From assembly GCA_016700415.1 (NCBI GenBank), contig CP065018.1, positions 2,389,894 through 2,453,893 on the forward strand: 64,000 nt of DNA, read 5' to 3'. The notes below the pieces were generated by a model that was given only the letters and a program-made list of their open reading frames with translations, was not told where the DNA came from and made no database searches. The position numbers and the translations under genes were made by a program. Below, piece by piece: positions 57,131 through 57,825 of this stretch (the first letter of the stretch is position 1; the number at the start of each line of letters is the position of its first letter). The stretch comes from Flavobacteriales bacterium (GTDB lineage: Bacteria > Bacteroidota > Bacteroidia > Flavobacteriales_F > PHOS-HE28).

Positions 57131-57147
57131 ACCGCTGCTTTTTTGAA

Positions 57148-57173
57148 CCGCAACGCACGCAACGAACGCAACG
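57148..57173. repeat. tandem 9-bp repeat array (CGCAACG ×3; inverse orientation of CGTTGCG arrays)
   Basis: cCGCAACGcaCGCAACGaaCGCAACG lies immediately upstream of the GxxExxY gene. Confidence 0.8.
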
Positions 57174-57195
57174 TGAAAAGGCTTGAATTGAACCG

Positions 57196-57612
57196 TTGCT
57201 GACGCAACCCGATCGAACCATTAACGAGATGACGGAGAATGAACTGGCCGAGGTTGCGGTAGAGGCTGCGTTCCGCGTGCATAGGGAGGTAGGTCCCGGT
57301 TTGCTGGAGCATGCGTATGTGAAATGTATGCACCACGAGTTGCTTGAAATGGGTATTGCGACAAAGCTGGAACATTCCGTTCCGCTAGTGTACAAAGGGG
57401 CGAACATGGGCGCGGGCTACCGCTTGGACCTATGGCTTGAGGACAAGTTGATCATCGAAGCCAAGACTGTCGAGACGACCCTGCCGATCCACCAGGCACA
57501 ACTGATGGCCTATCTGAAACTCACGGGCAATAAGCTGGGCCTGCTGATGAACTTCAACGTCAAGCTGATGAAGAACGGGATCGAACGCTGGGCGAACGGG
57601 ATGCCCGAATAG
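57196..57612 (+). CDS. GxxExxY-family protein
   Basis: 138 aa with the family signature GPGLLEHAY (GxxExxY) and conserved …YRLDLWLEDKLIIEAKTVE… and …LMNFN…. Confidence 0.8.
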   Translation: MLTQPDRTINEMTENELAEVAVEAAFRVHREVGPGLLEHAYVKCMHHELLEMGIATKLEHSVPLVYKGANMGAGYRLDLWLEDKLIIEAKTVETTLPIHQAQLMAYLKLTGNKLGLLMNFNVKLMKNGIERWANGMPE

Positions 57613-57639
57613 TTTTGCCTCGCATTTCGTCGCCGTCCA

Positions 57640-57810
57640 CACTCTTGCATTCCGTTGCGGTAAACCGTTGCGTCCTTTGCGAGCGTTGCGGTAAACCTTT
57701 GCATTCCGTTGCGAGCGTTGCGAGCGTTGCGGTAAACCTTTGCATTCCGTCTCGCTCGTCGCGAACGTTGCGGCAAACCCCCTGCATTCCGTTGCGCCCG
57801 TTGCGAGCCT
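57640..57810. repeat. imperfect ~40-55-bp tandem repeat array built from CGTTGCG heptamers
   Basis: Units of the form CTTTGCATTCCGTTGCG(AGCGTTGCG)nGTAAAC are repeated ~5 times with variable length, downstream of the GxxExxY gene and upstream of rnhA. Confidence 0.8.
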
Positions 57811-57825
57811 ATCGGTTAACCTAGC

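Follow-up and report, generated by a model that had tools for sequence, protein, structure and literature searches.

A GxxExxY nuclease gene and its inverted heptamer arms are inserted as one unit between marC-like and rnhA genes in a Flavobacteriales genome

The marC–rnhA spacer, its repeat arms and its protein

We have analysed a stretch of 64,000 nucleotides from a Flavobacteriales bacterium, referred to here as the window, in which the spacer between a marC-like gene and rnhA is filled entirely by a cassette composed of a small ORF and flanking repeat arms. marC, the GxxExxY ORF and rnhA are all read in one direction, the left arm starting 9 nt past the marC-like stop codon (57128-57130) and the right arm stopping 3 nt short of the rnhA ATG at 57826. 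The features of the locus are:

57131..57825, + strand: the whole inserted cassette (arm, ORF, arms), 695 bp, with empty sites in relatives
57139..57173, - strand: left arm, inverted repeat to the downstream units (57147-57173)
57229..57612, + strand: GxxExxY / PDDEXK_3 nuclease ORF, 127 aa, with TIGR04256 and PF13366 matches
57645..57822, + strand: right arm, amplified, a partial unit and four units of 41-42 bp (repeat family at 57665, 57706, 57747 and 57789)

The arrays described in the original prediction were located as three CGCAACG copies with a period of 9 upstream of the ORF (57149, 57158 and 57167), an imperfect CGTTGCG-type array of ~170 bp downstream of it (57645-57822) and four period-9 CGTTGCG copies in the pgk leader (42608-42641). 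On the + strand, the left arm reads as a T-run, GAACC and (GCAACGNNC)x3, the reverse complement of (CGTTGCGNN)x3 GGTTCAAAAAA. The right arm begins with the partial unit (57645-57664), followed by the full units, each of which has the form TTGCATTC + (CGTTGCGNN)x3 + GGTAAACC and is 63-93% identical to the reference unit, the third and fourth being degenerate. The upstream arm and the downstream units form inverted repeats of 27 nt that are 89% complementary. The description of the arrays as not CRISPR-like was borne out, the units being either 9 bp with 2 free bases or 41 bp without unique spacers, and the identical 23-50 bp repeats with unique, constant-length spacers of a CRISPR are lacking. 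Integron attC sites were also considered and rejected, as none of the termini, ...TTGAACC / GGTWNAA (GTAAACC, GTTAACC, GTTCAAA), fits GTTRRRY.

The heptamer CGTTGCG is present 30 times in the window, vs 17.3 +/- 4.0 expected, a count of at least 30 being reached in 0 of 100 shuffles. Sixteen of the 30 copies lie inside three clusters, the only places in the window where CGTTGCG is found at 9-bp spacing, all of them intergenic, while the remaining 14 do not exceed expectation; the heptamer is therefore clustered and not a generally frequent k-mer, so that the refuting condition of a frequent, unclustered heptamer does not hold. Strict arms, defined by three similar heptamers with a period of 9 and then GGT, number five in the window and none in 30 Markov shuffles, the chance of an arm calculated from the pattern being ~3e-7 per position. 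More broadly, arms consist of heptamers of the consensus C-K-Y-N-G-Y-G, usually three (range 2-5), with 9-bp spacing and a GGT cap, conserved flanks of GCATTY and a T-run, and usually an outward-facing layout, ACC(arm)…gene…(arm)GGT. CGTTGCG is one flavour of this wider C-K-Y-N-G-Y-G...GGT family, alongside CTTTGCG, CTTTGTG, CTCTGYG and CTTCGCG. A single arm is not a palindrome, as it is made of three direct heptamers and CGTTGCG is not self-complementary. Adjacent units can share an identical dinucleotide NN (AG/AG, CT/CT), whereas across paired arms the NN between heptamers are uncomplementary (identity 0.38 vs 0.89 for the heptamers). As the dinucleotides are not compensated, selection seems to target the heptamers, as protein sites predict, and not a continuous helix.

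The identity of the ORF as a GxxExxY protein was confirmed by scores above the curated cutoffs for both TIGR04256 (E 5e-36, 123.5 bits vs 35) and PF13366 (E 3e-35, 121.4 bits vs 22). Across 22 aligned family sequences, G22, G24, E27, Y30, D67, E77 and K79 are invariant. The AF2 model (pLDDT 94) gave weak matches when compared with the PDB using Foldseek, Cas4 SSO0001 at the top (E 1e-3, TM 0.46; generic PD-(D/E)xK), with lambda exonuclease and splicing endonuclease among the other leading weak matches, and a sequence search of solved structures with the protein gave no match. As modelled, the PD-(D/E)xK fold does not reveal which of duplex, hairpin or junction is its substrate. PHROGs and PADLOC searches gave no match, leaving a defence-system reading without support. 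GxxExxY/PDDEXK_3 is a very large family without known function and with almost no literature, its profile matching 35,481 clusters at 50% identity. Two-domain GxxExxY proteins of 270-295 aa were considered as read-through of two cassettes across an arm and are real fusions instead. Some single-domain tails resemble translated arms (...SHAKPQSRED, ...TAEIAERTE), a reading of the peptide only.

Insertion sites and gene-less copies

Comparison of related genomes at the marC–rnhA junction, as the original prediction had proposed, identified empty sites in three groups of relatives (L237-L245), in which the GxxExxY gene and the arms are missing together between marC and rnhA. In these genomes rnhA follows marC with a spacer of 0-96 bp or the genes overlap, and RNase HI is 77-84% identical. 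Thus, 57131-57825 was inserted as a unit that is present or absent whole. The empty-site spacers do not align, so the ends of the cassette are not exactly definable, and the gene is only mildly atypical in GC content (0.55 vs 0.60). In a sister species (L209-L218, L172) the cassette occupies the same site with different unit counts, 3-4 upstream and 2 downstream compared with 1 and 4 here, and between strains whose protein is identical the difference is a single unit, of 48 bp or of ~80 bp. These counts indicate that arm-plus-linker units expand and contract in tandem.

Arrays around other GxxExxY copies, a test set in advance, were observed at high frequency. When sites were collected by protein search alone, among relatives at >=38% identity, 12 of 13 independent GxxExxY insertion sites carried repeat arms on both flanks: the window (also L209), L219, L229, L231, L235, L236, L206, L207, L246, L247, L248 and L249. 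A relative at 33% identity (L208) had no arms. Armed insertions originate from Flavobacteriales, Cytophagales, Bacteroidales, Chitinophagales, Acidobacteriota, Gemmatimonadota, Sphingomonas and unassigned viral contigs, in unrelated contexts (nuo, fab and suf-type operons; after radA, ade, hemN and a fucosidase gene) and at GC contents from 0.32 to 0.72. Close to the gene (up to 200 bp away) arms number 5.07 per kb, vs 0.147 per kb in the rest of the same loci. In the converse test, on 543 kb of metagenome loci chosen by the arm pattern alone, 4 of 4 GxxExxY genes lie <300 bp from an arm. Of 9 annotated cases, 8 have the gene co-directional with its upstream neighbour and 8 with its downstream neighbour, and in compact examples the arms are 1-25 bp from the ORF. 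Two insertions (L236 and L235) are reversed in polarity, their GGT/ACC ends pointing towards the gene. Arm flavour partly tracks protein clades and is common to both flanks, which argues that gene and arms are inherited together. Placed between housekeeping genes, both the gene with its arms and gene-less arms are encountered over at least five bacterial phyla, and the design seems undescribed so far.

When a genome collection was scanned for three units of CGTTGCG, unrelated repeats within coding sequence dominated the result, with perfect CGTTGCGGT runs in Actinomycetota, Burkholderiales and others, and the Flavobacteriales matches alone were relevant. For the metagenome search, H was consequently required as the first base of the spacer, a restriction that biases NN statistics drawn from that search, and those statistics were set aside. 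In viral scans the arm pattern matched coding repeats only and just three GxxExxY loci were found, giving no sign of a phage element.

Gene-less arms are present in further intergenic spacers, arranged either as hairpin doublets whose spacer is 37-40 nt or as tandem clusters. Those in the window are:

42608..42643, + strand: gene-less arm in the holB/pgk divergent spacer, (CGTTGCGNN)x4 with a GGT end (CGTTGCG x4, 42608-42641)
42676..42702, + strand: second gene-less arm of another flavour, CTTCGTG TC CTTCGCG TC CTTTGTG GT
42516..42534, + strand: short array, ACGCAGATAG x2, a third repeat flavour
2428..2510, no strand assigned: gene-less inverted doublet of the CTTCGTG flavour, ACCACGAAGACCGCTAAG, 28-nt spacer, CTTCGTGTCCTTCGCGTTCTTCGTTGTA, hairpin fold z = -2.7

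The doublet lies between sufB (974-2419) and a sufA/iscA-like gene (2525-2851). Arrays of the ACGCAGATAG type adjoin CGCAACG arms in L053 and flank a GxxExxY gene in L207. In a species with 93% identical pgk, the ends of the pgk spacer are kept and the flavours are different, and in a species with 85% identical pgk the arms are absent. As a sister species has other flavours there, the pgk arrays do not behave as a conserved regulator of pgk, and we consider that the pgk-leader arrays and the suf-operon doublet are probably gene-less arm copies and not pgk-specific regulators.

Among 23 non-redundant doublets the modal spacer is 37-40 nt, compared with 400-600 nt for gene-containing pairs. Neighbouring arms are arranged ACC-out in 31 pairs vs the opposite arrangement in 6, and same-orientation tandem neighbours are also present (17 '++', 10 '--'). 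Intergenic DNA of related Flavobacteriales, and of other phyla, contains the arm architecture at dispersed positions. In one lineage an arm doublet is located inside a classical MITE (Calditrichaceae-type) with 13-bp terminal inverted repeats and 8-bp duplications; as the doublet rides within an element having its own termini, arms are not necessarily transposition termini.

A selfish cassette and competing explanations

Combined, these observations are best accommodated if 57131-57825 is a small, selfish, promoter-less cassette with a GxxExxY nuclease ORF between terminal inverted arms, an interpretation we hold to be reasonably probable. By analogy, and with a similar degree of confidence, it would resemble the intervening sequences of 23S rRNA, with gene-less derivatives of the REPIN/MITE kind. 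The cassette would be expressed by read-through from the host operon, and its arms, once in the transcript, may pair into a stem of the RNase III type, as happens in intervening sequences of 23S rRNA; the nuclease mRNA would thereby be excised or limited, and the host messages on either side uncoupled. At the DNA level, the arms could serve as cis sites for copying of the element and its gene-less derivatives, the resident nuclease being the candidate enzyme that acts on them. Counting against the cassette reading, a 127-aa PD-(D/E)xK nuclease alone cannot perform strand transfer; the two insertions of reversed polarity, the arm doublet carried inside a MITE and the mild GC deviation of the gene are further points against it. 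The search for a target-site duplication found no 5-9 bp direct repeat at any offset in 43 pairs (best offset, 4/43).

The original prediction had left a choice between a dispersed REP-like family and an operator array. The first is supported, as arms are dispersed and bracket other GxxExxY genes, whereas the second is less favoured because arms occur far from any GxxExxY gene, because those in the pgk leader turn over between sister species and because arms and gene come and go as one insertion. In its fuller form, the operator explanation holds that the heptamers are binding sites for the GxxExxY protein or a host factor, the arms being cis-regulatory for the gene, rnhA and pgk. Seven conserved and two free positions, fixed 9-bp spacing and runs of 2-5 are what cooperative protein sites would look like; the dinucleotides are unconstrained and not complementary between arms, arms adjoin start codons (rnhA at 3 nt, the pgk ATG at 27 nt), and both polarities are seen around the gene. 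However, relatives have rnhA without any arms, the arms came together with the gene as a single insertion, the flavour differences and absence of arms in the pgk spacer are at odds with regulation, and gene-less doublets adjoin all sorts of genes. We regard this explanation as unlikely.

A purely RNA-level role was judged improbable to the same degree. Here the arms would constitute a transcript stem, either an RNase III site or a REP-like exonuclease barrier that insulates or stabilises the flanking messages, and the gene would move by ordinary recombination or horizontal transfer. The arms can form a 27-bp interrupted stem around the ORF, and pairing of the left arm with a downstream unit is predicted for the 695-nt RNA by its MFE fold as well as by its centroid fold. 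The long-range pairing, the strong hairpins formed by gene-less doublets (z = -4 to -11; -2.7 for the suf doublet), the precedent of RNase III cleavage of a 28-bp terminal stem in intervening sequences and the co-directional placement of insertions within operons are consistent with this role as well as with the cassette reading. The full-length cassette folds no more stably than shuffles (z = -0.9), a point against the cassette reading. The lack of compensation at the NN positions argues against an RNA-level role and also weakens the RNase III-stem part of the cassette reading, while a stem needs neither conserved heptamer identity nor a GGT cap, and the common same-orientation tandem clusters cannot pair mutually. 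An intrinsic terminator was rejected, as a T-run 5' and an A-run 3' of the hairpin, on both strands, are the reverse of terminator geometry, which likewise counts against an RNA-level role. Screening with Rfam 15 returned no gathering-score match in the window other than 2 tRNAs, with no rRNA, and in 57050-57900 no relevant match at E <= 1. A likeness to a tRNA T-arm is seen at some right termini (GCGGTTCAAATCC) and is not general, the window units ending in GGTAAACC, and a Bacteroidota promoter (TTTG...TAnnTTTG) in the arms was dismissed because the units have TA-N4-TTTG, off consensus.

That the arrays are functionless, immobile, slippage-prone microsatellite-like DNA arising independently from CGTTGCG-like seeds is highly improbable, for although copy number varies between strains and identical NN in adjacent units suggest recent 9-bp duplication, a capped, three-unit, inverted architecture recurs in at least five phyla beside one gene family, and these recurrence data, set against the chance frequency of an arm, effectively refute it.

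A bolder extension of the cassette reading, which we offer as speculative and rather doubtful, is that a class of prokaryotic mobile element not recognised before has GxxExxY proteins as its trans-acting enzymes. In this scenario the nuclease would bind the heptamers at their 9-bp spacing, in duplex, hairpin or cruciform form, and cuts at the GGT/ACC caps would drive copying of the cassette and of gene-less doublets as well as tandem amplification of arm units. The doublets would then correspond to those of RAYT-REPIN, with a PD-(D/E)xK enzyme in place of RAYT, and a sister system might be formed by the 23S_rRNA_IVP genes (Avd-like four-helix bundles) and their 7-nt inverted arrays. If true, this would provide a function for two very large 'unknown' families at once, GxxExxY alone comprising ~35,000 clusters at 50% identity.

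Under the cassette reading itself, the family now has a genomic signature, a promoter-less cassette in housekeeping operons with capped inverted arms and gene-less derivatives, which makes the questions of nuclease action on arms and of RNase III processing testable. The signature would also account for unusual annotations, among them small ORFs within nuo and fab operons and ORF tails translated from arms, and the cassettes would be one source of the intergenic repeats that vary in number in Bacteroidota and other phyla.

Comparison with known systems

The arrangement shares with REPIN-RAYT systems the inverted hairpin doublets with a short spacer, lineage-specific flavours, the absence of a target-site duplication and a single small gene flanked on both sides by matching repeats. 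In contrast to RAYT, the flanked gene matches PF13366/TIGR04256 only and encodes a PD-(D/E)xK nuclease, not an HUH/Y1 (IS200/IS605-type) transposase, each arm is a tandem triple and not a REP palindrome of 20-40 bp, and the gene appears to have been inserted at many different sites and in many phyla and is not a single, vertically inherited copy.

The seg and mob homing endonuclease genes of T4-like phages are small nuclease ORFs located co-directionally between conserved genes and are present or absent between close relatives. The GxxExxY gene is similar in being a small co-directional nuclease ORF wedged between conserved genes and patchy in relatives. Neither flanking repeat arms nor gene-less derivatives are known for the seg and mob genes.

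DDE-transposase MITEs differ in that a target-site duplication is lacking here, the unrelated Calditrichaceae-type carrier MITE alone showing 8-bp duplications. The BrickBuilt MITE of Porphyromonas gingivalis is built from a 23-nt unit, has many copies per genome and no associated gene reported (PMC4596501); like the arms, it is found in Bacteroidota and is intergenic, with tandem short units, inverted ends and variable unit number (PMC4596501), and unlike it the present elements have 9-bp heptamer arms.

The 23S rRNA intervening sequences of Coxiella and Leptospira are ~430-760 nt long, with an internal ORF of unknown function and a terminal-inverted-repeat stem of ~28 bp; they are excised by RNase III, have been proposed to be mobile and are regarded as selfish (PMC4990558). 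The 695 bp cassette is alike in its one small ORF, its terminal inverted-repeat stem (27 nt, 89%) and its sense orientation in a transcribed housekeeping unit. It is unlike them in lying between protein-coding genes (marC-like, rnhA) and not in 23S rRNA helices 9, 25 or 45, in carrying a PF13366 PD-(D/E)xK nuclease as cargo where the intervening-sequence ORF belongs to PF05635 (S23p / 23S_rRNA_IVP), and in its heptamer arms with free dinucleotides, tandem amplification and dispersed gene-less copies. A 23S_rRNA_IVP gene is itself present in the window and has inverted arrays of another short repeat on its two sides, a parallel that favours the cassette reading. By this comparison, GxxExxY cassettes may be linked to the ORF-bearing 23S rRNA intervening sequences, which have long lacked an explanation.

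Capped repeat arrays in the window and the dispersed arm family

The GxxExxY ORF of the window lies between a marC-like gene and rnhA, and the period-9 arrays first noticed around it and in the pgk leader were found as described, all three CGTTGCG/CGCAACG arrays being present.

Features of the window
451-975 (start 918), reverse strand: 23S_rRNA_IVP gene (four-helix-bundle, Avd-like; PF05635, E 5e-27)
2428-2510: gene-less inverted arm doublet of CTTCGTG flavour (heptamer variant) in the suf operon, flanked by sufB (974-2419) and a sufA/iscA-like gene (2525-2851)
42516: ACGCAGATAG x2, first of three flavours in the holB/pgk spacer
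42608-42641: CGTTGCG x4, period 9, second flavour in this divergent spacer
42676: CTTCGTG/CTTCGCG/CTTTGTG+GT, third flavour in the same spacer
56495-57130 (stop codon included): marC-like NAAT transporter gene, upstream neighbour
57149-57173: CGCAACG x3, period 9, between the marC-like stop and the GxxExxY ORF
57229-57612: GxxExxY ORF
57645-57822: partial unit and four 41-42 bp units, between the GxxExxY ORF and rnhA
57826-58308: rnhA, downstream neighbour

The downstream units are composed of TTGCATTC + (CGTTGCGNN)x3 + GGTAAACC and form 27-nt inverted repeats with the upstream array, 89% complementary. The heptamer is not merely a frequent k-mer, as 30 copies are observed in the window against 17.3 +/- 4.0 expected, a count attained in no shuffle, with 16 of the 30 located in the three clusters and the remainder at expectation. 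Strict arms, defined as period-9 runs of three similar heptamers with GGT after them, occur five times in the window and not once in 30 Markov shuffles. Contigs encoding an identical protein come from the Flavobacteriales MAGs GCA_016717735.1, GCA_016716825.1 and GCA_016705675.1 and from one ENA assembly; the flanks there match the window except for one homopolymer base and thus add no information.

A scan for three CGTTGCG units in one genome per species, mostly swamped by unrelated coding repeats, detected six loci of high-GC Flavobacteriales MAGs in which intergenic (CGTTGCGNN)x3-4 is followed by GGT(W)NA, often with GCATTY 5' of the array and often as inverted pairs. A tightened pattern retrieved 77 metagenome loci, many of this intergenic capped type. 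Arms built alike from CTTCGYG, CTTGGCG, CGTGGCG and CATCTGCG adjoin CGTTGCG arms. The general core is C-K-Y-N-G-Y-G at 9-bp spacing (occasionally 8-12) with a GGT cap. The suf-operon doublet folds as a hairpin with z = -2.7.

Three flavours are present within the holB/pgk spacer (42510-42705). In a sister species with pgk 93% identical (loci L250-L253, 3689-4000) the spacer ends are retained, among them the 20 nt that precede the ATG, and the middle carries other flavours, ATCGGCG x3 + GGTTTTT and CACAGAT-type arrays; in a species with pgk at 85% identity, gene order differs and the spacer is 41 bp and free of arms. The pgk-leader arrays are therefore no conserved pgk feature, and the spacer looks like a hotspot of arm turnover.

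Association of arms with GxxExxY genes

Arrays around other GxxExxY copies were detected from both directions of search. Loci chosen solely by arm pattern (543 kb) contain four GxxExxY genes, each lying within 300 bp of an arm and bracketed as in the window, by ACC(GCAACGNNC)x3 upstream and (CGTTGCGNN)x3 GGT downstream; the contigs of two of them have a GC of 0.45 and 0.39, and one directly precedes the enolase gene. Selection by protein alone, through homologue searches, exact-protein look-ups, viral contigs and a plasmid collection, yielded 13 independent insertion sites, of which 12 carry arms on both flanks. The one exception (L208) encodes a protein of 33% identity and lies on a phage-like contig that is rich in AT.

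GxxExxY cassettes at retrieved loci: source, site, arm flavour
Window and L209: Flavobacteriales, marC-rnhA, CGTTGCG
L219: after a fucosidase gene, CGTTGCG
L229: Marivirga, CTTTGTG
L231: Flavobacterium, hemN-cyclase, CTTTGCG
L236 (5001-5378): Taibaiella, nuoF-nuoG, CTTTGCG / CTTAGCG
L235: Acidobacteria, CTTCGCG / CTTGGCG
L206: viral contig, CTTTGTG
L207: viral contig, CGCAGATAA + ATCAGCG
L246: Bernardetia, ade-manC, CTCTGTG
L247: Bacteroides finegoldii, after radA (radA-FAD protein), CTCTGTG, textbook ACC...GGT
L248: Gemmatirosa, CTCTGCG, perfect 37-bp-stem doublets on both sides
L249 (1435-1863): Sphingomonas replicon, fabD-fabG, CTTCGCG

By the generic pattern, the 200-bp gene flanks have 5.07 arms per kb and the remainder of these loci 0.147 per kb; by estimate, the flanks are still enriched about 4-fold if all arms elsewhere are assigned to the roughly 12% of sequence that is intergenic. 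Of the 9 annotated cases, 8 have the GxxExxY gene running in the direction of its upstream neighbour, and 8 in that of its downstream neighbour. In compact genomes the arms lie 1-25 bp from the ORF, leaving no room for a separate promoter. The cassette would be expressed by read-through.

Several loci show further features. L236, L249, L247 and L246 are core-operon sites, and the annotated ORF of L249 is longer by 19 codons, which are translated downstream arm. In the Acidobacteria locus L235, cassette-flavour arms at 4100-4225, 7405-7430 and 8327-8392 also separate neighbouring small toxin-antitoxin-type genes (VapB-like, AbiEii and HEPN/nucleotidyltransferase pairs). The region has the look of cassettes strung together with arms between them. 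In Marivirga (L229) an extra small hairpin, CAGCCAAAGGCTG / GCAGCTTTGCTGC, occurs just beyond the ACC/GGT cap, before or after each arm (about 1870-1890, 2385-2405 and 2550-2570), suggesting that the conserved terminus may extend past the arm in some lineages.

The 23S_rRNA_IVP gene of the window, located between sufB and a response-regulator gene, parallels the GxxExxY cassette in being bracketed by inverted arrays. It has an upstream array, CTGATTC CTAATTC CTGATCC (947-927), a short repeat unlike the GxxExxY arms, and downstream inverted motifs, GGAATTAG / GATCAG / ATCAGGAATTAG (about 530-499), within the ORF 3' tail, which extends to a TGA overlapping the ATG of the next gene. A Flavobacterium IVP gene (L233, 2805-3176) is similarly bracketed by AGTGTTCAG / CTGAACA arrays. 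With an identical GxxExxY protein, the ruvC-hemN region contains an IVP gene in L233 and L234 and a DUF6252 gene in L231, a presence/absence polymorphism of the second cassette type.

Insertion, unit-number change and arm geometry

Comparison of relatives at the marC-rnhA junction shows that the cassette is an insertion. The order purN-marC-rnhA-biotin/lipoyl is common to three relative groups (RNase HI 84%, 83% and 77% identical), in which marC and rnhA are 96 or 41 bp apart or overlap by 4 nt, and neither a GxxExxY gene nor arms are present. The site is likewise occupied in a sister species (GxxExxY 88% identical), whose cassette has 3-4 units of 48 bp on the upstream side and two units on the downstream side. 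Empty sites in the relatives and a filled site in the sister species show that gene and arms were gained together. Contigs that encode the identical protein differ by one 48-bp unit, and the cassette of retrieved protein P0009 by one unit of about 80 bp between samples. After gain, the arms act like a variable-number repeat.

Arrangement of neighbouring arms (number observed)
-+ (ACC...GGT facing outward): 31
+- (opposite): 6
++ (tandem, same orientation): 17
-- (tandem, same orientation): 10

Opposite polarity, with caps toward the gene, is observed in L236 and L235. Gene-less doublets have a spacer with a mode of 37-40 nt, starting with GAATRC, ending with CAAAGT and variable in the middle; a T-run lies to the left of the doublet and an A-run to its right, opposite to the order at a terminator. 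When folded, these doublets form long hairpins with interruptions (z = -4 to -11). The left arm of the 695-nt cassette RNA pairs with the third downstream unit in both MFE and centroid folds, and stability of the whole RNA is not above that of shuffles. The cassette transcript may undergo RNase III-type processing. The two arms of a pair are 89% identical at heptamer positions whereas NN positions are 38% identical, suggesting that the heptamers, rather than a continuous helix, are constrained. At 43 arm pairs no target-site duplication was detected.

On Calditrichaceae-like contigs an arm doublet, ...CCGCAACG TGAAAGAGATAAACATCTGTT (CGTTGCGNN)x3 GGTATAAC, lies inside a MITE of about 200 bp with sharp ends, 13-bp terminal inverted repeats (GTAACTACTCAGG...CCTGAGTAGTTAC) and, by eye, apparent 8-bp target duplications such as GAGGTTTA and TTTTCATC (L078, L131, L137, L146, L150, L158, L159, L175, L181, L189 and L200, from metagenome Ga0256841 and a Calditrichaceae MAG). 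A classical MITE can therefore carry arms as cargo, which cautions against regarding them as transposition termini.

The GxxExxY protein and known systems

E27, D67, E77 and K79 are invariant in the family alignment. The AlphaFold model is confident (pLDDT 94), and Foldseek against PDB gave weak, generic PD-(D/E)xK matches only, to Cas4 SSO0001 (E 1e-3), lambda exonuclease and a splicing endonuclease; no sequence match was found among solved structures, nor any in PADLOC or PHROGs. The family is very large, comprising 35,481 clusters at 50% identity (E <= 1e-3). Its best-scoring representatives (P0361-P0374) are 240-295 aa with two tandem GxxExxY domains and look like real fusions rather than read-through across an arm. 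Flavour partly tracks protein clade, with identities of 58-87% in the CGTTGCG group, 52-66% in the CTTTGYG group and 55% for the CTCTGTG pair; locus L161 is an outlier. This shows that gene and arms descend together; recognition does not follow from that alone. Most speculatively, the nuclease might act on the arms to copy the element.

The feature first noticed is real and larger than first thought, a single example of a design that is widespread and apparently undescribed, in which a promoter-less GxxExxY nuclease cassette has capped, repeat-built inverted arms, accompanied by gene-less doublets and clusters. It is inserted as a unit, recurs across phyla, and has a preferred geometry, rapid unit-number change and pairing potential. 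In the literature searched, which covers few subscription journals, papers mentioning 'GxxExxY' contain nothing on function or flanks, and no description of these arms was found under REPIN/RAYT, STRR and Flavobacteria MITEs; PF13366 is listed as 'unknown' in a PD-(D/E)xK survey. The nearest precedents of the cassette are the ORF-bearing 23S IVS, with a 28-bp terminal stem, RNase III excision and proposed mobility (PMC4990558), REPIN-RAYT, and BrickBuilt, a MITE of P. gingivalis (PMC4596501).
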